Part shown: positions 9,107 to 37,614 of the stretch, in pieces
Layout: the number at the start of each line of letters is the position of its first letter
Numbering within the stretch: position 1 is the stretch's first letter
Assembly: GCA_001782035.1 (NCBI GenBank)
Contig: MFNL01000001.1
Span: 277,012-341,011 of the forward strand
From: Candidatus Levybacteria bacterium RIFCSPHIGHO2_01_FULL_37_17
GTDB lineage: Bacteria; Patescibacteriota; Microgenomatia; Levybacterales; UBA12049
DNA length: 64,000 nt
Reading direction: 5' to 3'
Made by a program: the position numbers and the translations under genes
The notes under the pieces: model-generated
Database searches by the model: none
The model's input: only the letters and a program-made list of their open reading frames with translations
What the model was told of the DNA's origin: nothing

Positions 9107-10279
9107 ATGAGTTCAAATAACAAATTAATTATTTTTTTTGCTGGCTTAGCATTATATTTCCTATCTGCAGGAATATCTTATTTTGTTTTCGGATCTGTTT
9201 TATCAAAAAATCCTGCCGCTGTCTCCGTTCCCCTTCCGAAGGTGAGCCAAGACGGTCAACTAAATTTTGATGAAAGCTTGCCTAAGACAGAAGAATGTCC
9301 AATCAACGGCGCTAAATATTCAAAACAGCAAGAGGCATGGTGGAACACACACGGGCCTCTTACTGTTATGATAGAAAATCATCAGGAAGCAAGGCCACAG
9401 TCCGGCCTTTCCAAAGCAGATACAATATATGAAATTGTGGCGGAAGGTGGAATTAGCAGATTTCTTACAGTTTTTTATTGCCAGGATCCCGGGCAGCTTG
9501 GTCCAATAAGATCCGCAAGGACATATTTCATAGATTTTGCGTCAGAATACGGTGATTTTCCTCTGTATGTACACGTTGGGGGAGCCAATACTCCAGGTCC
9601 TGCTGATGCTCTTTCGCAATTAACAACATATGGTTGGACTAACCATAATGATTTAAATCAATTCTCAATCGGTTTTCCGACATTTTGGAGAGATTATGAT
9701 AGGCTGGGCCATACTGTAGCAACAGAGCACACTATGTATTCCACTGCAATTAAACTTTGGGAATATGCTGCCAAAGACAGAGAATTAACTAACGTTGATG
9801 AAGATGGAAAGGCTTGGGATACAAGCTTTTCCCCGTATAAATTTACCGACGATCCAAAGCTTTCCGAACGGGCATCAAAACAAGCTATTAATGTCGAGTA
9901 TTGGAATAATTCAGAGTATTTTGTCGATTGGACATATGACACACAAAGCAACAACTACAAAAGAGAAAATGGAGGAAAGTCACATCTGGATAAAAATACG
10001 AGTAAACAGTTAGCTGCTAAAAATATCGTAGTACTTTTTATGAGAGAATCAAACGCAAATGATGGGTATGAAAACAACGTACATCTTTTATACGGTACAA
10101 AAGGAAACGGAAAAGCAATTGTATTCAAAGACGGGAAAAGAATAAATGCGACATGGAAAAAAGCATCAAGAACGTCAAGAACAATTTTAACAGATTCAAG
10201 CGGAAAAGAAATTGCATTCAACAGAGGATTAATTTGGTTTCACGTATTAGCCACCGATGGAGCTGTTACAGCTAAGTAG
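9107..10279 (+). CDS. DUF3048 domain protein (YerB-like secreted/lipoprotein)
   Basis: Signal/TM N-terminus; TIYEIVAEGGISRFLTVFY DUF3048 core; 390 aa. Confidence 0.7.
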   Translation: MSSNNKLIIFFAGLALYFLSAGISYFVFGSVLSKNPAAVSVPLPKVSQDGQLNFDESLPKTEECPINGAKYSKQQEAWWNTHGPLTVMIENHQEARPQSGLSKADTIYEIVAEGGISRFLTVFYCQDPGQLGPIRSARTYFIDFASEYGDFPLYVHVGGANTPGPADALSQLTTYGWTNHNDLNQFSIGFPTFWRDYDRLGHTVATEHTMYSTAIKLWEYAAKDRELTNVDEDGKAWDTSFSPYKFTDDPKLSERASKQAINVEYWNNSEYFVDWTYDTQSNNYKRENGGKSHLDKNTSKQLAAKNIVVLFMRESNANDGYENNVHLLYGTKGNGKAIVFKDGKRINATWKKASRTSRTILTDSSGKEIAFNRGLIWFHVLATDGAVTAK

Positions 10280-10331
10280 TTGCAATTCCCCAATCTTTAT
10301 GATAAAAATTACTCACTTAATTGGATAAAAT

Positions 10332-10907
10332 ATGTTTTCAGATTTAATAACTTCTAAATCAAGAGTTAAGCTACTTTCGGTCTTTTTAGCAAACCCAAAC
10401 GACATGTTCCATGTAAGAGAATTGGTGCGAAGAACAGGGGATGAAATTAATGCTGTCAGACGTGAGCTTGCATTTTTAGAAAATAAGGGGATTCTAAATA
10501 AGGAACCTCGTGCCAACAGGGTTTATTATTCATTTTCCAAAACTTATCCATTTTATTTTGATTTACTTCGCATTGGCTCCAAAAATATGGGGCTTGGTGG
10601 GGATATATTAAAAAATCGTGTCAAACTGGGGAAAATAAAATACGCAATGTTTTCAGGTAAGTTCTTGCGACGAATCAAAGAAAGAGCGGATGAAGTGGAT
10701 TTACTTCTAGTCGGAACAGTGGTTCTTCCCGAGCTTGCGCTTCTTGTACGAGAAGAGGAAAAAAGATTATCAACCGAAATAAACTATACAGTAATGACTG
10801 AGGAAGAGTTTAACTTTAGAAAAAAGAAAAGAGACCCGTTTATTCTATCAATCTTATCAAGCTCAAGAGTTATGCTTCTGGGAGATGAAGAATCTATGCT
10901 TTCATGA
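10332..10907 (+). CDS. winged-helix transcriptional regulator-like protein
   Basis: N-terminal RVKLLSVFLANPNDMFHVRELVRRTG...VRRELAFLENKGIL resembles wHTH DNA-binding domain; C-terminal domain unassigned. Confidence 0.45.
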   Translation: MFSDLITSKSRVKLLSVFLANPNDMFHVRELVRRTGDEINAVRRELAFLENKGILNKEPRANRVYYSFSKTYPFYFDLLRIGSKNMGLGGDILKNRVKLGKIKYAMFSGKFLRRIKERADEVDLLLVGTVVLPELALLVREEEKRLSTEINYTVMTEEEFNFRKKKRDPFILSILSSSRVMLLGDEESMLS

Positions 10908-12196
10908 GAAAAAACCCTAGAACCCTGCTCGCTCTAATAGTAACTCTCACCTTAGTCTCTGTCTTTATAAACCTTCCGAAAGTAGGAAACTTCGATCCAA
11001 ATATCATTTTCCAAAAGTTAAATATTACCAAAGAATTAGCTTTCCGAAAAGGTTTAGACTTGGAAGGTGGAACAAGTCTTATTTTGAGAGCGAATATGAA
11101 AGAGATAGCTTCCTCGCAAAAATCCTCCGCATTGGATAGCGCTAAACTAGTTATAGAAAAAAGAGTTAATCTTTTTGGTGTTTCAGAGCCTCTTGTTCAA
11201 ACTTCAATTGTAAATAACGACTACAGAATTATCGTAGAACTGCCTGGTCTTACCGACATAAATCAAGTAAGACAGCTGATTGGTACAACAGCTCAGCTTT
11301 CATTTTGGGAGGAAGCGAGCTCTTCTGCAAGCATTGCGTCTCCTTCGGCACAGCCGGGGTTTATAAAAACAAGCTTAACTGGAGCGGATATCAAAGATGC
11401 AAGCGTCTCTTTTGACACAAGTACAGGAAAGCCACAAGTTCAGATTAGATTTACAAGTGAGGGATCTAAGAAATTTGCGGATATAACTACGAGAAATGTA
11501 GGCAAGCAGGTTGCAATCGTTTTGGATAATCAGCTAATTGAAAGTCCCGTCGTTAACCAGGCTATTTTAACAGGGGATGCAGTAATTACAGGAAATTTTA
11601 CAGTTGATACAGCAAAGCAATTGTCCACACAGTTGAATGCCGGAGCGCTGCCTGTTCCACTTGAAGTTCTTTCGACTAACGTCATTGAGCCTACTTTAGG
11701 AAGCGCGTCTTTGGCAAAAAGTCTTTTTGCAGGTGTATTAGGATTTATTATAATAATCATTTTTATGATCGGACTTTATGGAAGGCTAGGTGTCGTCGCT
11801 TCTCTTGCGCTTTTTCTCTACGCACTTTTTGTTTTGGCCATTTTTAAAATCAGCTCTATTACTCCATACGGAATCACTTTAACGTTATCAGGAATTGCAG
11901 GCTTTATACTTTCAATCGGAATGGCGGTTGATGCAAATGTTTTAATTTTTGAAAGAACGAAGGAAGAACTTCGAGCAGGTAAAGAAAAAGCTGTTGCAAT
12001 CGAGCTTGGATTTTCAAGAGCTTGGACATCAATTAGGGACTCAAACGTTGCAACTCTAATAACAAGTTTTGTTTTATACCAATTTGGCACAGGAATGGTA
12101 AAAGGCTTTGCTTTAGTTTTAGCAATTGGAGTTTTAGCTTCGATGTTTTCGGCGATTACAATTACTAGAACTTTCATAAGATTTTTATATAAATAA
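10904..12196 (+). CDS. secD: protein translocase subunit SecD
   Basis: LDLEGGTSLIL periplasmic domain and C-terminal SecD/F 6-TM core; ATGA overlap with upstream gene. Confidence 0.9.
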   Translation: MRKNPRTLLALIVTLTLVSVFINLPKVGNFDPNIIFQKLNITKELAFRKGLDLEGGTSLILRANMKEIASSQKSSALDSAKLVIEKRVNLFGVSEPLVQTSIVNNDYRIIVELPGLTDINQVRQLIGTTAQLSFWEEASSSASIASPSAQPGFIKTSLTGADIKDASVSFDTSTGKPQVQIRFTSEGSKKFADITTRNVGKQVAIVLDNQLIESPVVNQAILTGDAVITGNFTVDTAKQLSTQLNAGALPVPLEVLSTNVIEPTLGSASLAKSLFAGVLGFIIIIIFMIGLYGRLGVVASLALFLYALFVLAIFKISSITPYGITLTLSGIAGFILSIGMAVDANVLIFERTKEELRAGKEKAVAIELGFSRAWTSIRDSNVATLITSFVLYQFGTGMVKGFALVLAIGVLASMFSAITITRTFIRFLYK

Positions 12197-12197
12197 T

Positions 12198-13103
12198 ATG
12201 TTTAATATAATTGGCAAAAAATATTGGTTTTTTTTAATATCTACAATTATTATTATTCCCGGTCTTGTGTCACTTTATTTTTATGGCTTAAATCTCTCGA
12301 TTGAGTTTACAGGAGGGTCTAGGCTTTCGTTTGAATTTTCTAAAGAAATAACTAACCAACAAGCGTCAGAAGTAAGAAAAATTTTAGAAGAAAAAAATAT
12401 TAAGGTCTCAACTGTTGAGAAGTCGAATAAAAATCTTTTTATTAGAACTGCACCTCTTTCTCAAAAAGAAAATGTTGAATTGCAAAATGCGCTAAAAAAT
12501 AAATATCCTGATTTTAAACAAATAGGATTTGAAACAATAGGTCCAACAATCGGGCAGGAAATAACCCTTAACGCTTTAAAAGCGATTGCCATCGCATCTA
12601 TTCTGATTGTTTTATATGTAACTTACTCTTTCCGCCAAGTTCCCAAACCCGCAAGTAGCGTCAGGTTTGGAGTAGCCGCAGTTATCGCGCTGGTACACGA
12701 TGTGCTAGTTTTAATAGGAGCTTTTTCAATATTTGGACATTTCTTAAATGTAGAGATTGATAGTCTTTTTGTGACAGCAACTCTGACTGTTATTGGGTTT
12801 TCGGTGCATGACACAATTGTAGTTTTCGATAGAATTAGAGAAAATTTAAAACGGCAAGGAAGTGAGCATTTTGCGGCTACGGTTAATGATTCAATATTGC
12901 AAACTTTTGACCGCTCGCTTAACACATCTCTTACAGTAATTCTTGTTCTTGTTGCTCTTCTTATTTTTGGAGGGGAAACGATAAGATGGTTTGTTGTAGC
13001 GCTTTTGGTTGGAATAATTTCCGGAACCTACTCATCTATTTTCAACGCCGCCCCAATTTTAGTTGTTTGGCAGGAAATTGTCGAGAAGAAAGTTAAGAGG
13101 TAA
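12198..13103 (+). CDS. secF: protein translocase subunit SecF
   Basis: IEFTGGSRLSFEF N-terminal motif and SecF membrane core; immediately follows secD. Confidence 0.9.
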   Translation: MFNIIGKKYWFFLISTIIIIPGLVSLYFYGLNLSIEFTGGSRLSFEFSKEITNQQASEVRKILEEKNIKVSTVEKSNKNLFIRTAPLSQKENVELQNALKNKYPDFKQIGFETIGPTIGQEITLNALKAIAIASILIVLYVTYSFRQVPKPASSVRFGVAAVIALVHDVLVLIGAFSIFGHFLNVEIDSLFVTATLTVIGFSVHDTIVVFDRIRENLKRQGSEHFAATVNDSILQTFDRSLNTSLTVILVLVALLIFGGETIRWFVVALLVGIISGTYSSIFNAAPILVVWQEIVEKKVKR

Positions 13104-13545
13104 GCTTCTCGCTTACTAATTTTGAAACCAGTCCCATATCTGCTTTGCCCTTGAGCTTAGCATTAAGCGCTCCCATAACTTTTCCCATATCTTGCATTGC
13201 TGAGGCTCCAACCTCGTTAATTATTTGTTCAACAACTTTTTGAATCTCTTCCTCACCCATTTGCTCTGGCAAGTATTCTTGTAAGATTTCCAACTCTTTT
13301 TTTTCTTTGTCTGCCAAATCTTGTCTTTGGGCTTTCTCATACTCCGTAATTGAATCGCGTCTTTGTTTTGCCTGAGATTGAATTACCGACAACACATCCT
13401 CTTCTGTCGCACTGTATCCTGCGCCTCCTTTTTGAATTTCATAATAATTTATCGCAGAAAGTAACATTCGCAAAACAGAAGTTTTTAGCTCGTCTTTGGC
13501 AAGCATTGATTCTTTTAATTTTCCCTGTAACTCATCTTTCGTCAT
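13093..13545 (-). CDS. GatB/YqeY domain protein
   Basis: 150 aa, SVLRMLLSAINYYEIQKG...GKVMGALNAKLKGKADMGLVSKLV typical YqeY. Confidence 0.85.
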   Translation of the reverse strand: MTKDELQGKLKESMLAKDELKTSVLRMLLSAINYYEIQKGGAGYSATEEDVLSVIQSQAKQRRDSITEYEKAQRQDLADKEKKELEILQEYLPEQMGEEEIQKVVEQIINEVGASAMQDMGKVMGALNAKLKGKADMGLVSKLVSEKLTS

Positions 13546-13552
13546 AACCTAA

Positions 13553-14947
13553 TTATAGCTCTTTAATTCTTTTTTCTAAATACTCTTTGTTATTTAATTT
13601 TAAATTTTCGTCTACCTCTTCAAAAAGTTTTTTTAATATTTCTCCGACTTTGGGACCAGGTTTAATATTTAAAATTCTCATTACGTCCTTTCCATTAACA
13701 GCTAAATCGTTCATCGAGAATGGTTTTGGAGCAAGTTCCCCTGCGACTCTTTCTTTGAATTTTTTTAATCTCCAGCTTTCTGCTTTTTGGGTTCCTCCGC
13801 CGAGCCTGTCTCCAATTCTAAGGTCCATCATATCAGCAACATTTTCAACCCCAATTCTTCTTATAAATCGCCTTACCGCTGAATCAGTTAAGTTCTCGTT
13901 AACAGAAAACATGTGCCAGCGCACTAAAGTTATAACTTTATCCCTATCTTTTTTTGAAAACTTAAGCCTGTCACATAATTCCCCCGCAATTTTTGCGCCG
14001 GCTACCTCGTGGTTATAAAAAATGACCAATCCCTTATCATCCTTTGAGGCGACTTGTGGTTTTCCAATATCGTGAATTAGAGCGGCAAACTTAACAATTG
14101 GGTTTGTAGACGGACAAAACTTTAAAGATAAAACATTATGAGTAAAAACATCTTCGGTATGGTGTCTTCCGGCTCTTGCCTGAGACAGTCCAATGCCCTC
14201 TAAAAGCTGCGGAATAATATATTTTAAAAGCCCGCTTTCGTATAGCATTATTGCGCCTTCGTATGCAAACTCCGACTTCAAAATCCTCAAAAGTTCTGCT
14301 TGCACTCTTTCTTTTGAGATGTGTTCCAAGAGCTTCGCATCACTTTTTATACTTTTCCATGTTTTCTCTTCGATTGTAAACTGCAGCTCTGTTGCAATTC
14401 GAATTCCCCGCATAAGTCTTAATGCATCTTCTTTAAATCTTAAGTTTGGATTTCCAACTGCTCTTACAATTTTTTCTTTTAAATCCTTTTCCCCGTCGAG
14501 TGGGTCGATGATTTTATATTCTCCGTTTTTTATTTCAAGAGCAATAGCGTTTATCGTAAAGTCCCTTCTTGATAAATCGTCTTCTATGGTTTTCCCCCAT
14601 TCAATTTTTTCGGGTTTATGGGTGGGAGACTCGCTCCATTCTTTTCTAAATGTAGTAATTTCTGCAATCTTTTTCTCGCCCTTTAACTCAAAAGATACCC
14701 CAACTGTTCCAAACTGGTTATCGTAAAATCCATTTTGGAAAACTTTTAATATTTGTTCTGGTGTCGCATTCGTTGTTAGATCCCAGTCTTTTACGGAGTT
14801 GCTCAGCAGTAAGCTTCGTACGCATCCTCCTACGAAATAAACTTCAAAATTAGCTTTTTGTAGTTTTTTATAAATTTCAATAACTTCGTTTGGAATATCT
14901 TTCTGCATAGCTTGTTCGGTTAAGCTTACTTTGCTATAGTATAGCAA
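13553..14947 (-). CDS. cca: CCA tRNA nucleotidyltransferase with HD domain
   Basis: YFVGGCVRSLLL...DWDLTT polymerase-beta head motifs; HD motif LIHDIGKP; 464 aa. Confidence 0.85.
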   Translation of the reverse strand: MLYYSKVSLTEQAMQKDIPNEVIEIYKKLQKANFEVYFVGGCVRSLLLSNSVKDWDLTTNATPEQILKVFQNGFYDNQFGTVGVSFELKGEKKIAEITTFRKEWSESPTHKPEKIEWGKTIEDDLSRRDFTINAIALEIKNGEYKIIDPLDGEKDLKEKIVRAVGNPNLRFKEDALRLMRGIRIATELQFTIEEKTWKSIKSDAKLLEHISKERVQAELLRILKSEFAYEGAIMLYESGLLKYIIPQLLEGIGLSQARAGRHHTEDVFTHNVLSLKFCPSTNPIVKFAALIHDIGKPQVASKDDKGLVIFYNHEVAGAKIAGELCDRLKFSKKDRDKVITLVRWHMFSVNENLTDSAVRRFIRRIGVENVADMMDLRIGDRLGGGTQKAESWRLKKFKERVAGELAPKPFSMNDLAVNGKDVMRILNIKPGPKVGEILKKLFEEVDENLKLNNKEYLEKRIKEL

Positions 14948-20599: not shown

Positions 20600-21835
20600 A
20601 TGGTTAGAGTAAGGTTTGCACCAAGTCCAACAGGAATACAACATATCGGAGGAATAAGGACAGCGCTTTATAATTATTTGTTCGCGAAGAAAAATCAAGG
20701 AGAGTTTTTACTTAGAATCGAAGATACCGACCAAAAAAGGCTGATCAAAGAAGCAGAAGGGGCACTTCTTGAGATGCTTAGATGGCTTGAAATAGAGCCA
20801 AAAGGAAATATTGTCCACCAGTCAAAACGTCTTGATATTTATAAAAAATACGCAAAAGAGCTTGTTTCAAAAGAACTAGCTTATGAAAAAGATGGCGCAA
20901 TCTGGGTTAAAATGCCGGAAAGTAAGAGCTTTGAATGGACTGATTTAGTAGGAAACAAGCATATTAGATTTGAGGGAAAAGATCAAAAAGACTTTGTGAT
21001 TTTAAAATCCGACGAATTTCCGACCTATCATTTTGCAAATGTAGTCGACGACCACTTATTTGAAATAACACACGTTTTTAGAGGCGAAGAATGGATATCA
21101 TCTACTCCTAAACACCTGTATCTATATGAAAGTTTTGGATGGAAAAGACCTGAATTTGTTCATCTCCCTGTAATTTTAGGAAGCGATCATACCAAGCTTT
21201 CCAAAAGACATGGTGCAAAATCAGTTTTGGATTACAGGAGTCAAGGTTATTTAAAGGAAGCTGTACTAAATTACATGGCGCTTCTTGGTTGGAATCCGGG
21301 TGGGGACAGAGAAAAAATGAGCCTAGATGAGATGATTGAGCTATTTAAGATAGACCATATTAATAGTGCAAATCCTATTTTTGATCAAACTAAATTTGAA
21401 TGGCTAAACGGTGTTTGGATACGCAGTATTTCGACAAAAGACTTGCAAGAAAGACTAATTGAGTTCTACTCAGATGATAAAGAGGTTACAGAAACTCTTA
21501 AAAGTTCAAAATCGCCTGATTTAGTAAAGGTTGCAGCCTCAAGAATGAAAACCTTGATGGATTTCAAAAGTTTGGTTTCTAAAACTTCTCAAAGAGAAAA
21601 AACTCGGGAGGAAATTAAAATAGCGAAAAAACTAAAAACATTTTTGACCCAAAATCTAAAAACATGGGAAGACGCAGAGCTGCTTAATGCAATAAAGGAA
21701 TTTAGTAAAGAAGAAGATATTCCATTTAAGACAATTTTTTTCCTGCTAACCGGAAAGGAACAGGGAATTGGAATTTTAGAGTTAAATCAAATCTACGGAA
21801 AAGACTTTTTGATATCAAATTTAGAGGGCAAATAA
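20600..21835 (+). CDS. gltX: glutamate--tRNA ligase (short form, 411 aa)
   Basis: HIGG (HIGH) motif in RFAPSPTGIQHIGGIRTAL, KLSKR (KMSKS) motif; C-terminal anticodon-binding region shorter than canonical ~470-490 aa. Confidence 0.9.
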   Translation: MVRVRFAPSPTGIQHIGGIRTALYNYLFAKKNQGEFLLRIEDTDQKRLIKEAEGALLEMLRWLEIEPKGNIVHQSKRLDIYKKYAKELVSKELAYEKDGAIWVKMPESKSFEWTDLVGNKHIRFEGKDQKDFVILKSDEFPTYHFANVVDDHLFEITHVFRGEEWISSTPKHLYLYESFGWKRPEFVHLPVILGSDHTKLSKRHGAKSVLDYRSQGYLKEAVLNYMALLGWNPGGDREKMSLDEMIELFKIDHINSANPIFDQTKFEWLNGVWIRSISTKDLQERLIEFYSDDKEVTETLKSSKSPDLVKVAASRMKTLMDFKSLVSKTSQREKTREEIKIAKKLKTFLTQNLKTWEDAELLNAIKEFSKEEDIPFKTIFFLLTGKEQGIGILELNQIYGKDFLISNLEGK

Positions 21836-22318
21836 AAGAACTGCTATCCCAAGAAGAACTATAGCTATTCCACCGATTCCAAGGCCAAGTATTGTAGCGT
21901 TGGGTCCAGCTTCTGGTAAGCCTGCTGCGCTTGCCAAATTAGTGCTCACGGTACTTGACCAAGGACCGGTTGCGCAGCCATTAGTTGCCAACACCTTAAA
22001 AAAATAGTTTGTTTTAGGGAATAAGTCGTTTACTTTGTATTTAACAGCCCCATCAATTTTTCCCATACTAAACTTTACTGAATACGCATCTGCGCTAGAT
22101 GTTAGACCATACGATATTACATAACCATCAAAAGCAGATGTTGGCTGGACAAAGTATAAAGTTGCAGATGAAGAGCTCATAGAAACAGAGTAGAGATTTG
22201 GAGCATCTGCAGGTGGAGTTGCTGAGCATTCTTGTGCAAAAGAAAGCTTGGGAGATAGCCCTGCTAAGGATATTAAGGTGATTAGAATAAATCCGAAGGC
22301 CAAAAACTTAAATTTCAT
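21821..22318 (-). CDS. secreted fibronectin-III-like protein with C-terminal LPEAG plus hydrophobic anchor
   Basis: Signal peptide MKFKFLAFGFILITLISLAG; FN3-like strand pattern (YVISYG...NYFFKVLATNG); C-terminus LPEAGPNATILGLGIGGIAIVLLGIAVLLFAL; start trimmed to Met with signal peptide. Confidence 0.5.
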   Translation of the reverse strand: MKFKFLAFGFILITLISLAGLSPKLSFAQECSATPPADAPNLYSVSMSSSSATLYFVQPTSAFDGYVISYGLTSSADAYSVKFSMGKIDGAVKYKVNDLFPKTNYFFKVLATNGCATGPWSSTVSTNLASAAGLPEAGPNATILGLGIGGIAIVLLGIAVLLFAL

Positions 22319-22413
22319 GCCTTTAGTATAGAATATCTCTTTTTTAGAGCCATTTTGCAATAGGCACATTAATATAAGGTGACTTTTAAGCACAAATCTT
22401 ATAGAATAGGGTG

Positions 22414-22457
22414 TATTGCCGAGTCGCCTGCCTGCGCAGGCAGGTCTAATGGTAGGA
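22414..22457 (+). repeat. partial duplicate of the 5' 26 nt of tRNA-Gln split by an 18-nt perfect palindrome (CCTGCCTGCGCAGGCAGG)
   Basis: TATTGCCGAGTCG[palindrome]TCTAATGGTAGGA is identical to 22711..22737 (tRNA 5' end) apart from the inserted hairpin; seen directly. Confidence 0.7.
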
Positions 22458-22461
22458 TAAA

Positions 22462-22710
22462 ATGTGGCACGTTTACATTTTAAGAAGTAAAATTAAGAGA
22501 TGGTATTACGTAGGAAGTACAAATAGGCTTCAAAAGAGAATTCTCGAACATAATTCAGGTAATACTGTCTCAACAAAAGCGTATAGACCTTTTGACTTGA
22601 TATTTAATAAAACTTTTAAATATGAAATTGATGCAAGAAAATACGAAAGAAAACTTAAAGACAAAAGAATAGAAAAAGAACAAATAATAAAAGAAACTGA
22701 AGACAAATAA
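22462..22710 (+). CDS. GIY-YIG nuclease family protein (82 aa)
   Basis: VYILRS...RWYYVGSTNRLQKRILEHN is the GIY-YIG catalytic module; lies between the tRNA-fragment repeat and intact tRNA-Gln. Confidence 0.85.
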   Translation: MWHVYILRSKIKRWYYVGSTNRLQKRILEHNSGNTVSTKAYRPFDLIFNKTFKYEIDARKYERKLKDKRIEKEQIIKETEDK

Positions 22711-22714
22711 TTAT

Positions 22715-22785
22715 TGCCGAGTCGTCTAATGGTAGGACAACGGATTCTGGATCCGTTTATTGGGGTTCGAATCCCTGCTCGGCAG
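22715..22785 (+). tRNA. tRNA-Gln (anticodon CTG)
   Basis: Manual fold: 7-bp acceptor TGCCGAG/CTCGGCA, D-stem GTCT/GGAC, anticodon stem ACGGA/TCCGT with loop TTCTGGA, T-loop TTCGAAT, discriminator G; CCA not encoded. Confidence 0.85.
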
Positions 22786-22873
22786 CAAGCACGTGCAGGT
22801 ATAGTACGGTACCCTCTCTATTCACGTCCTCAATTCGCTGGAGATCTTTTACGGATATGGTTATCAGCTGATA

Positions 22874-23230
22874 ATGCCTTCTTTTATGAAGAAAGCTGGA
22901 GAAGAACAATGGGGTATGTATGAAGGATACAGAGATGACGCTCAATATTTAATCGATATTGCTGATCAGAAAGTGCCAAGCGACCAGATCACTGGAAATT
23001 CCAAAGCAAGAGATAAAAGGGACAAGGCTATACAAAAATATACTGAAGAACTTGATAGGCTATCAAATATTAAAGACTGGAGAATTCCTATTATTTCGCA
23101 GCCTTTACCAAAAGAATGTAATAAGGATAATTTATTTATTCCTGAAACTTCTGGCTCAATTGATTGGACGGGAGAAGAAGATAAAGAAACTCCCATCCCT
23201 GGGCCTTTTAATTTCGAACCATTATCTTAA
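22874..23230 (+). CDS. hypothetical protein (118 aa)
   Basis: ORF immediately 3' of tRNA-Gln; acidic, no family recognised. Confidence 0.4.
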   Translation: MPSFMKKAGEEQWGMYEGYRDDAQYLIDIADQKVPSDQITGNSKARDKRDKAIQKYTEELDRLSNIKDWRIPIISQPLPKECNKDNLFIPETSGSIDWTGEEDKETPIPGPFNFEPLS

Positions 23231-36718: not shown

Positions 36719-36720
36719 TG

Positions 36721-36794
36721 TACCCCGTATGGGAATCGAACCCATGATCTCGACATTGAGAATGTCGCGTCCTGGACCGCTAGACGAACGGGGC
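36721..36794 (-). tRNA. tRNA-Glu (anticodon CTC)
   Basis: Reverse complement GCCCCGTTCGTCTAGCGGTCCAGGACGCGACATTCTCAATGTCGAGATCATGGGTTCGATTCCCATACGGGGTA folds as cloverleaf; D-arm near-identical to bacterial tRNA-Glu. Confidence 0.85.
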
Positions 36795-36823
36795 ATGTCT
36801 ATATTTTACCTCAAACTGGCAGT

Positions 36824-36852
36824 TTAGACAATTGAGCTTGTTTTGCTATAAT
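36824..36852 (+). promoter_or_regulatory. candidate promoter TTAGAC-N17-TATAAT for the glycosylation gene array
   Basis: Hexamers and spacing read directly; 7 nt upstream of first GT2 gene start. Confidence 0.4.
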
Positions 36853-36858
36853 CAATGA

Positions 36859-37614
36859 GTGGATAATGTTTATTTAAGCGTTGTTATTCCCTCATATAAC
36901 GAAATCGCAAATCTTCGGAAAGGGACACTAGATAAGGTCCAGCACTTTTTGGAAAAGCAAACTTATTCTTATGAAGTATTAATTGTTGATGATGGCTCAA
37001 CAGATGGAAGCTTAGAGTTTGTAGAAAAGTTCATATTGGAAAATCCCAAGTTCAAAATATTGAAAAATCAGCATTTGGGAAAAGCAGGTGCAGTTACCTC
37101 GGGCATGCTAAATGCAAAAGGAGAACTGCGCCTTTTTACAGATATGGACCAGGCAACTCCGATTGAGGAAGTTAATGAGCTGACCCCTTTTACTAAAAAG
37201 GGATACGACGTGGTAATTGGCTCAAGAAGTTCGCATAGAGAAGGTTCTCCCCTGACTCGTCAATTCATATCATTATCCGCAATACTGTTGCGAAGAGTAC
37301 TCGTTGGCTTGAATGAAATATCGGATACCCAATGCGGATTCAAGTTGTTCACAAGAGATGCGGCAGATTTGCTTTTTAATAAAATAAGCGATATTCATCA
37401 TGGTTTCCATAAGATATCGGGCTCTGCAGTTACAGCAGGTTTTGATGTTGAGCTTTTATATTTAGCAAAAATTGAAGGTTTAAAAGTTAAAGAAGTTCCG
37501 GTCGACTGGCTATATGTTGAGACAAGAAGAGTGAGTCCAGTATCAGATTCTGTTAATGGGTTCTTAGATTTTGTAAGAATAGGTATTAATAGATTTAGGG
37601 GTAAATATAGATGA
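36859..37614 (+). CDS. GT2 glycosyltransferase, Dol-P/Und-P-sugar synthase-like (DPM1/GtrB-like)
   Basis: LSVVIPSYNE...VLIVDDGSTDGS, DxD (TDMD), soluble 251 aa. Confidence 0.8.
   Translation: MDNVYLSVVIPSYNEIANLRKGTLDKVQHFLEKQTYSYEVLIVDDGSTDGSLEFVEKFILENPKFKILKNQHLGKAGAVTSGMLNAKGELRLFTDMDQATPIEEVNELTPFTKKGYDVVIGSRSSHREGSPLTRQFISLSAILLRRVLVGLNEISDTQCGFKLFTRDAADLLFNKISDIHHGFHKISGSAVTAGFDVELLYLAKIEGLKVKEVPVDWLYVETRRVSPVSDSVNGFLDFVRIGINRFRGKYR

Follow-up and report, generated by a model that had tools for sequence, protein, structure and literature searches.

The 64,000-nucleotide (nt) stretch of Candidatus Levybacteria bacterium RIFCSPHIGHO2_01_FULL_37_17 that we analyzed (the window; coordinates given without a locus number are positions in it) carries a tRNA-Gln(CTG) gene that is preceded by a very small GIY-YIG nuclease gene and by an interrupted copy of the tRNA's own 5' part. 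We consider it likely that this arrangement is a mobile, selfish cassette of the Patescibacteria (candidate phyla radiation [CPR]) that resides in tRNA-Gln genes, uses the tRNA promoter and restores the tRNA with a 5' segment of its own. Sequence comparisons show that cassettes have moved from genome to genome and that recombination has occurred within the tRNA; nuclease-driven homing as the trigger of the spread is what we infer. The cassette consists of the following parts, in which PAL is our name for the 18-nt palindrome and ORF stands for open reading frame.

22379 to 22407, + strand: promoter-like site GTGACT-17-TAGAAT of the resident tRNA-Gln gene (consensus scan, a pattern match only)
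22414 to 22426, + strand: part a of the displaced 5' fragment, TATTGCCGAGTCG, which is 3 leader bases plus tRNA-Gln positions 1 to 10 (TAT TGCCGAGTCG); identical to 22712 to 22724
22427 to 22444, + strand: PAL, a perfect palindrome of 18 nt, CCTGCCTGCGCAGGCAGG, which parts tRNA position 10 of the displaced fragment from position 11 (direct reading)
22445 to 22457, + strand: part b of the displaced 5' fragment, TCTAATGGTAGGA, which is tRNA-Gln positions 11 to 23 (direct reading)
22451 to 22457, + strand: GGTAGGA in part b, 4 nt before the ATG; a candidate ribosome-binding site, judged by its position
22462 to 22710, + strand: ORF, stop codon included, for an 82-amino-acid (aa) minimal GIY-YIG nuclease of the Slx1/UPF0213 type (PF01541 match)
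22712 to 22737, + strand: replacement copy of the leader and tRNA positions 1 to 23, the 5' part of the functional tRNA (direct reading)
22715 to 22786, + strand: intact tRNA-Gln(CTG) (ARAGORN; Rfam RF00005, 59.2 bits, full model)

Direct reading bore out the layout given in a preliminary description of this DNA. A 26-nt 5' segment of tRNA-Gln is present twice, at 22414 to 22457 and at 22712 to 22737 (the second copy had been placed at 22711, one base off), the palindrome lies exactly between the two halves of the upstream copy, and a lone 82-aa GIY-YIG ORF is found between the copies. This ORF begins 4 nt past the upstream copy and stops 4 nt short of the tRNA. Since ARAGORN and Rfam place the tRNA-Gln at 22715 to 22786, the repeat consists of 3 leader bases and tRNA positions 1 to 23, with PAL at the junction of positions 10 and 11 (10/11). 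The filled allele has 298 bases more than an empty tRNA-Gln gene, all of them at 10/11 and in the order PAL, copy of positions 11 to 23, TAAA, ORF, four bases, copy of positions 1 to 10. The resident promoter and the original first 10 bases of the tRNA remain upstream as a PAL-interrupted, non-functional fragment, and the complete tRNA is the element's own copy of the 5' segment joined to the resident 3' part. The promoter-like site ahead of the displaced fragment, one of 3 consensus matches found against 2.0 expected, probably drives fragment, ORF and tRNA as one transcript.

The 13-mer TCTAATGGTAGGA, with up to 2 substitutions allowed, has exactly two sites in the window, both in the repeat copies, and the exact 10-mer TGCCGAGTCG occurs at the same two sites only, near-matches with two substitutions being present elsewhere. 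PAL has a chance expectation of 0.01 in the window and is the sole GC-rich palindrome of at least 12 nt in it. A chance origin of the repeat/palindrome arrangement is excluded. A second GIY-YIG copy or a second half-tRNA was not found within the window.

tRNA genes commonly host integrative elements, and direct repeats of tRNA sequence do flank the insert. Moreover, group I introns are common in tRNA genes of Patescibacteria (PMC13011429). Nevertheless, we give hardly any credence to an intron, an assembly artifact or a tRNA-gene island of the classical integrase type as the explanation. The downstream tRNA is complete without splicing, and an Rfam search of 22200 to 23000 at E values up to 1 returned the tRNA only and no ribozyme, in agreement with the earlier judgment that the insert is not an intron. 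An island of the integrase type should look different from a 298-base-pair (bp) insert with a single 82-aa ORF and no recombinase, in which the 5' end of the tRNA and not its 3' end is duplicated. As for an artifact, the filled structure is identical in independent assemblies from NCBI, ENA, JGI and Logan data.

Relatives of the window were located via the neighboring GluRS gene. This gene, directly upstream (20600 to 21835), encodes a short, 411-aa GluRS-type synthetase; its adjacency to the tRNA-Gln(CTG) gene looks coincidental because it is found in this flank context only. In the closest relative (locus L185; GluRS, 80% identical), the fn3 gene and about 105 nt of homologous upstream DNA are followed by TTTGCCGAGTCGTCTAATGGTAGGACAACGG, with no PAL and no ORF. 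In L183 (GluRS, 79%), a second, sister-type upstream context is followed by ATTGCCGAGTCGTCTAATGGTAGGACAA, and the site is likewise empty. Because the sequence is continuous across 10/11 and past position 23, both are taken as uninterrupted genes, and in view of these empty relatives the displaced fragment of the window is what the resident gene originally had as its 5' end, behind the promoter. The same site is thus subject to a presence/absence polymorphism, being filled in the window and in L181 and empty in L185 and L183, with homologous upstream DNA. A comparison of related tRNA-Gln loci for presence or absence of the segment, as suggested in the preliminary description, hence gave empty sites in the two closest readable relatives. 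Ordinary, cassette-free tRNA-Gln genes were also present in L084 and L141. A strain-level empty site was not found among contigs with the exact neighboring protein, which break at the tRNA, and two other relatives (L184 and L186) have no tRNA-Gln beside the fn3 gene and are uninformative.

If the cassette moves between genomes, it should be more similar between species than the DNA around it. Indeed, between the window and L181, a sister species (GluRS, 78%) with synteny up to the fn3 gene, the cassette agrees at 93.8% over 372 bp (96% for the ORF protein), whereas the flanking syntenic DNA agrees at 72 to 76% and the flanking proteins at 66 to 85%. Likewise, L033 and L035 agree at 97.1% in the cassette and at 83.2% in the nearest alignable flank, and their immediate flanks are unalignable. 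This excess over the flanks is in line with the insertion that had been proposed from the window. Between the fn3 gene and the cassette, L181 has a 4.5-kb block (9172 to 13620) with a methyltransferase gene, three ABC-transporter genes and a 266-aa ORF, and no such block is present in the window (22394 to 22413); the genes downstream of the cassette differ as well, as far as the tRNA-Glu and GT2 genes (36720 to 37287 in the window). The block and the differing downstream genes put the cassette at a synteny break whose edges are the cassette ends.

Recombination has left its marks within the cassette and the tRNA. Two upstream and two downstream contexts occur around an identical ORF, in each of the four possible pairings, and homology between the flank contexts runs from AT/TGCC at the start of the fragment to the 3' end of the tRNA. 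The alleles are mosaic, and the tRNA of L010 is chimeric, with a window-type 5' strand and a sister-type 3' strand in the anticodon stem. Both observations are compatible with co-conversion and also with ordinary recombination. L011 and L016 combine a local tRNA with an upstream fragment whose acceptor sequence is foreign, the junctions being at tRNA positions 1 to 5. Since the acceptor on the fragment is foreign there, the fragment moves with the element and is not duplicated anew at each insertion, which makes it doubtful that every event is repaired by duplication of the tRNA 5' half, as the preliminary description had it.

We scanned one genome per species, using alignment of the ORF protein and two peptide patterns only, and obtained 43 loci. 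One Acidobacteriota outgroup and one locus cut by a contig end were set aside, which left 41 evaluable loci from many CPR lineages. In all 41, the ORF adjoins a tRNA-Gln gene (CTG or TTG) and there is a redundant tRNA-Gln copy with PAL at 10/11. The idea of a GIY-YIG gene inserted in the 5' part of tRNA-Gln, with the tRNA kept whole, is supported, but the insertion is not private to this genome, the cassette being present in at least 41 species. The adjoining tRNA was called intact by ARAGORN in 38 of the 41; for the remaining 3 (L024, L039 and L050), the sequence runs out at a contig end. Upstream of the ORF, 38 loci have the redundant copy as a 5' fragment, and 3 (L023, L026 and L030) have it downstream and in full length; both forms are present in L034. 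An exact PAL was found in 32 loci and one with 1 or 2 changes in 5, and in the other 4 PAL is enlarged by a further PAL-like insert, whereas the ORF proteins are only 50 to 70% identical. Among the 41 loci, PAL was never seen inside the functional tRNA-Gln, and a cassette without PAL was not found. The loci have 12 different acceptor sequences, and in about three-quarters of them the first ten bases of the fragment are those of the local tRNA. The ATG of the homologous ORFs lies 0 to 13 nt past the D-arm remnant, and in about 12 loci the reading frame extends into the tRNA, where the D-loop supplies the TAA stop. The N-terminal extensions SPACAGRSNGR and LPAQAGLTVG of some database homologues correspond to translated PAL plus the D-arm of the tRNA. 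The ORFs of L032, L034 and L051 are broken, a decay typical of selfish nuclease genes.

Such a wide distribution could also be expected of a conserved leader that benefits the host, in which half-tRNA and hairpin would serve as a promoter, leader or processing element of tRNA-Gln and the GIY-YIG protein would have a vertically inherited housekeeping role. The shared architecture of at least 41 species from many CPR lineages, the strong conservation of PAL and the fragment, and the mostly intact ORF with its conserved residues would all fit. However, in the closest relatives the same promoter sits directly on the tRNA at an empty site, other CPR-like tRNA-Gln genes are free of the cassette, and similarity between species is far higher in the cassette than in its flanks. 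Furthermore, either isoacceptor (CTG or TTG) is used, homologous cassettes occur at tRNA-Leu and in RNase P RNA, broken ORFs are tolerated, and the RNA fold of 22408 to 22480 is no better than that of shuffled sequences (z = -0.88), for which reason a structured leader RNA was rejected as a role for PAL as well. We therefore regard a beneficial leader as very unlikely.

A passive relic is even harder to reconcile with the 41 loci. Tandem duplication can produce direct repeats, and tandem tRNA-Gln copies, two or three in number, do exist in L023, L026, L030 and L034; the arrangement might accordingly be a decayed tRNA-Gln duplication in which an unrelated ORF and a palindrome lodged by accident and from which no unit moves today. 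In that case, one would hardly expect all 41 loci, with their 12 acceptor sequences, to agree in the order and register of the three parts, PAL to be at the same nucleotide in all of them, or the block to be nearly identical across different flanks and species. We hold this explanation to be highly improbable.

Several of the 41 loci have further features around the tRNA. In L023 (2757 to 2960), L026 (2757 to 2935), L030 (2760 to 2945), L034 (2769 to 2970) and L048, inverted repeats of 5 to 9 bp surround the functional tRNA-Gln and extend its acceptor stem, as in GCAGAGC-tRNA-GCTCTGC, and behind the functional tRNA lies a pseudo-tRNA of full length that has PAL at 10/11. The pseudo-tRNA has an extra PAL-like insert in the anticodon loop in L023 and in the T-loop in L034. 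A second, more distant UPF0213-like GIY-YIG ORF (84 aa; 1493 to 1747) lies about 130 nt downstream of the cassette tRNA-Gln in L014, and a GC-rich part of the same contig holds a solo PAL (2731).

The ORF product matches the Pfam GIY-YIG family PF01541 with 55.9 bits (cutoff, 22.6; E = 5.6e-15), and its catalytic domain comprises residues 1 to 69. Y5, Y16, V17, G18, R26, E29, H30, N31 and E62 are invariant in 23 homologues; by homology, these would be residues of the catalytic type. A profile search against PDB gave the UPF0213 proteins BH0048 (1zg2; E = 2.7e-8) and EF2693 (1ywl; E = 1e-7), followed by Slx1 (E = 1e-4). An AlphaFold2 model (pLDDT, 85) has the order strand-strand-helix-strand-helix-helix, that is, a three-stranded sheet with flanking helices. 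In a Foldseek comparison, it aligned with the nuclease domain of Slx1 with a root mean square deviation of 2.0 to 2.4 Å over 69 to 72 alignment columns, and UPF0213 and Slx1 ranked above I-TevI and UvrC. The NCBIfam model of group I intron endonucleases was not reached (22.7 bits; cutoff, 56). The protein ends after the nuclease domain and one helix, with no second domain and no zinc finger. It is thus predicted to be a minimal nuclease domain of the Slx1/UPF0213 type. The protein family comprises 3001 clusters at E ≤ 1e-10.

PAL is made of two 9-nt inverted halves, has no stop codon in any frame and is predicted to form a DNA hairpin of -6.5 kcal/mol. Its distance to the ORF, which lies downstream, is a constant 12 to 30 nt, also in contexts other than tRNA-Gln, and it is translated as an N-terminal extension in 8 of the 150 best family representatives, some of them again in non-Gln contexts. 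A metagenome scan with the bare 18-mer gave at least 120 loci (L061 to L180), and the figures in this and the next paragraph apply to the matches listed. None of them had a tRNA-Gln context, and a related GIY-YIG gene was present in 4 of 120. The contigs with PAL range from 30% to 67% GC; those of low GC content (<46%) hold 65 of 122 PAL sites, for which the estimated chance is negligible. At least 85 sites lie in long open frames, where PAL reads LPAQAG in 61 cases, PACAGR in 14 and CLRRQ in 10 (phase bias, chi-square P = 5e-13). RpoB, UvrA, topoisomerase I (topA), RNase J (rnj) and YchF are among the products of genes with a solo in-frame PAL; examples of solo copies are those at L078 2227, L062 4237, L151 8356, L094 5076 and L162 10056. 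Of the YchF proteins, the query and one relative 84% identical to it have the six residues and relatives 74 to 83% identical lack them, a pattern that marks PAL as a genuine lineage-specific insertion. Taken together, the cassette loci and the solo copies make PAL both a fixed partner of a nuclease clade and a stand-alone mini-insertion.

Solo PALs are preferentially flanked by G before and C or T after. A spanning stem of at least 7 bp was found at 11.9% of the PAL sites compared to 1.9% of control positions, an approximately sixfold enrichment. PAL variants, as read from the sequences, have their changes at positions that would be paired with each other if the hairpin register were shifted (5 to 9 with 14 to 18); DNA folds fit this register for some variants only, since it is the minimum-energy fold in one and another folds 1-5:10-14. 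Nested PAL-like inserts are always at position 7/8 of the outer PAL. Other short GC-rich insertions were noticed in low-GC core genes, such as FSAQGASVQDGPASG in UvrA (L062, 4255 to 4330) and the inserts LPTGQAG, GPGRPS and one of 17 residues in the YchF relatives P0145, P0150 and P0153. This suggests a broader class of mini-insertions.

What does PAL do? The preliminary description had thought of a processing or termination hairpin. There is no terminator-like site and no T-run after PAL, its sequence is invariant across lineages, and it also stands alone and in frame in core genes; hence, this role was discarded. An abundant genomic repeat, an uptake-type sequence or a repetitive extragenic palindrome was rejected too, PAL being single copy in the window with no other half-sites, and so was a transposon or miniature inverted-repeat transposable element with target duplication: flanking repeats of at least 3 nt were found at 4 of 119 sites, and those are in locally repetitive DNA. 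PAL with tRNA flanks was not found in a viral collection, which gave no sign of carriage by phages. Our preferred guess is that PAL may be a structural handle or cleavage substrate of the enzyme that would also keep the displaced fragment from acting as a tRNA.

PAL might instead be a repair scar and immunity mark, an idea that is compatible with a mobile cassette. The nuclease would cut tRNA-Gln DNA at 10/11; a redundant copy would be healed by the 18-mer, which destroys the site, whereas the essential copy would survive only by exact repair, and solo PALs would be scars at other breaks. Indeed, PAL is at 10/11 in every redundant tRNA-Gln copy and in no functional one, redundant full-length copies contain extra PAL-like inserts (anticodon loop in L023, T-loop in L034), PALs are nested in PALs, the insertion in YchF is a clean, lineage-specific one of 18 nt, and a consistent target-site duplication is missing from the 119 sites. 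On the other hand, a fixed 18-mer fits no known repair pathway, and we know of none that adds one. The constant spacing of 12 to 30 nt between PAL and ORF, in non-Gln contexts too, suggests a cis function tied to the ORF, a "young" cassette without PAL was not seen among the 41 loci, and the recombination junctions of L011 and L016 are at tRNA positions 1 to 5 and not at 10/11. Repair scars are therefore a possible but unlikely origin of PAL.

For the selfish cassette, the data can be put together in the following way. The cassette would land in the 5' part of a tRNA-Gln gene, where its own 5' copy and the resident 3' part would make up a complete tRNA. The ORF, which has no convincing promoter of its own, would be transcribed from the tRNA promoter, the D-arm remnant GGTAGGA may serve as its ribosome-binding site, and cleavage by RNase P at the 5' end of the tRNA would part the mRNA from the tRNA. 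By recombination, the filled allele would replace empty tRNA-Gln alleles, with the universally conserved tRNA sequence as homology, and the most likely trigger of this replacement would be a break that the encoded nuclease makes in the empty gene or in a DNA hairpin arising from it. Recognition of DNA structure, such as a hairpin or cruciform, is more likely for this enzyme than recognition of a long sequence; structure-directed cutting is favored because the protein is a bare Slx1-like domain and because ORFs and PALs tend toward hairpin contexts. The direct repeats predict a precise loss that would regenerate the empty gene, and a second deletion product as well, a full-length tRNA with a solo PAL, such as lies downstream in L023, L026 and L030.

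Some points weigh against a mobile cassette of this kind. The contigs of L185 and L183 both stop inside the tRNA (at about position 27 to 30), so that the remainder of each empty gene is beyond the contig end. Assembly joins across a repeat could account for some of the four flank combinations, although the single-nucleotide polymorphism phases are within read or k-mer length. The wide distribution at 50 to 70% protein identity could in part reflect old vertical inheritance with repeated precise loss via the direct repeats, and the prevalence of the cassette among CPR genomes is seen through a scan of one genome per species that used one protein and two peptide patterns. A nuclease aimed at the 5' region of the tRNA would also cut its own allele because this region is unaltered in the functional tRNA, and an immunity mechanism that spares the functional copy is not evident. 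Finally, known GIY-YIG homing enzymes owe their site specificity to a separate DNA-binding domain, as in I-TevI, and no such domain is present in the 82 aa.

A bolder proposal takes PAL itself as the mobile entity. It would be the smallest known mobile DNA, inserting without target duplication in hairpin loops and coding sequence, and it would be mobilized in trans by minimal Slx1-like GIY-YIG nucleases specific for structures such as hairpins and cruciforms; cassettes in tRNA-Gln, tRNA-Leu and RNase P RNA genes would then be the autonomous form and solo PALs in core genes the non-autonomous one. We regard this as speculative and rather improbable. If true, structure-specific cutting would explain how an 82-aa protein can behave in a "site-specific" way.

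Related cassettes were seen at other RNA genes. L084 (11150 to 11900) has the same design at tRNA-Leu(GAG): the 5' part is interrupted by PAL after GGTAGA and followed by a GIY-YIG ORF that reads into the intact tRNA-Leu (11640 to 11724), after which comes a second, PAL-interrupted copy of the tRNA-Leu 3' part. The ordinary tRNA-Gln gene on the same contig (8065 to 8138) is cassette-free. In L104, the RNase P RNA gene (9154 to 9802, - strand) is 649 nt long (full-model match to Rfam class A with 84.6 bits, short of the gathering score of 100) and contains PAL (9679 to 9696) and a GIY-YIG ORF (9288 to 9569) between 14-bp inverted repeats. As in L104, small GIY-YIG ORFs are located between long inverted repeats, i.e., in hairpin loops, in L100 (4880 to 5440) and L162 (11900 to 12400). 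The insert of L162 is directly past the start codon of the downstream gene, with ATGTCAG duplicated on both sides; from its N-terminal sequence, we take this gene to encode ribosomal protein S6.

If the cassette is what we propose, it would represent a new lifestyle for selfish nuclease genes within essential genes, in which the tRNA promoter is borrowed and a spare 5' segment supplied within less than 300 bp. It would also provide the small GIY-YIG proteins of the Slx1/UPF0213 kind with a mobile-element context and a candidate substrate, namely, tRNA-Gln DNA or the PAL hairpin. For the annotation of CPR genomes, displaced fragments, chimeric tRNAs and ORFs running into tRNAs can mislead gene callers, and several database proteins bear N-terminal extensions that are the translated palindrome. 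Moreover, an in-frame 18-mer in rpoB, uvrA, topA, rnj and ychF of many uncultured bacteria points to an unrecognized insertion process.

A description of the cassette or of PAL was not found in the full-text literature, including searches for LPAQAG, for tRNA-Gln with GIY-YIG in CPR and for palindromic in-frame insertions. Slx1, one of the two nearest relatives of the cassette protein, is a structure-specific nuclease that acts on branched DNA and stem-loops, as also stated in the titles of structure entries. Unlike Slx1 proper, the cassette protein has no zinc-finger/RING domain and no Slx4 partner. For the other, the small proteins of the UPF0213/YhbQ family, no literature on function or mobile context was found. 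Solo PALs in rpoB, uvrA, topA, rnj and ychF resemble the Rickettsia palindromic elements and the GC clusters of yeast mitochondria, short palindromic insertions that are tolerated in frame in protein-coding genes or in RNA genes. Those are about 40 to 150 bp long and lineage-restricted, whereas PAL has 18 bp, is stop-free, is physically tied to a family of nuclease genes and occurs on contigs of 30% to 67% GC.

A parallel in logic is offered by homing-endonuclease genes of fungal mitochondria, such as the Allomyces atp6 element and the rps3 insertions, which bring along a duplicate of the end of the host gene that they displace. There, too, a nuclease gene sits in an essential gene, a replacement segment is supplied, a displaced pseudo-fragment is left, and the host gene becomes a hybrid. 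However, the fungal elements have protein-coding hosts, replace 3' ends and encode much larger nucleases, whereas the cassette has a tRNA as the host, replaces the 5' end with an insert of 298 bp and marks the displaced piece with a fixed palindrome. In enzyme type and location, SegB of phage T4 is similar, a free-standing GIY-YIG homing endonuclease encoded in a tRNA gene cluster (PMC2330249). Like the cassette ORF, segB is a free-standing GIY-YIG gene among or beside tRNA genes; its target is a conserved tRNA-gene sequence, about 27 bp centered on the T-psi-C motif of many tRNA genes, and it spreads by recombination with co-conversion of flanking tRNA sequence (PMC2330249). Yet SegB is a full-length homing enzyme whose gene lies between genes, no part of a tRNA is duplicated and no palindrome is present. 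The cassette protein is a bare domain of 82 aa, nearer to Slx1/UPF0213 than to the I-TevI type, tied to tRNA-Gln and of predicted activity. In the host group itself, GIY-YIG-encoding non-intron inserts are present in CPR rRNA genes and were judged not to spread by homing (PMC11270868). They share with the cassette the hosts, small GIY-YIG ORFs in genes of structured RNAs and an identity as neither group I nor group II introns; that paper makes no mention of tRNA genes or palindromes (PMC11270868), just as the paper on group I introns within the tRNA genes of Patescibacteria does not mention Gln, GIY-YIG or palindromes (PMC13011429). The insert in the RNase P RNA gene of L104 resembles those of the rRNA genes in kind. 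Compared to the rRNA inserts, the cassette is site-specific and recurrent, exists as empty and filled alleles and shows excess similarity over its flanks. The combination of a minimal Slx1-type nuclease, replacement of a tRNA 5' part and a fixed palindrome sets the cassette apart from SegB, the fungal elements and the CPR rRNA inserts alike, none of which has all three.

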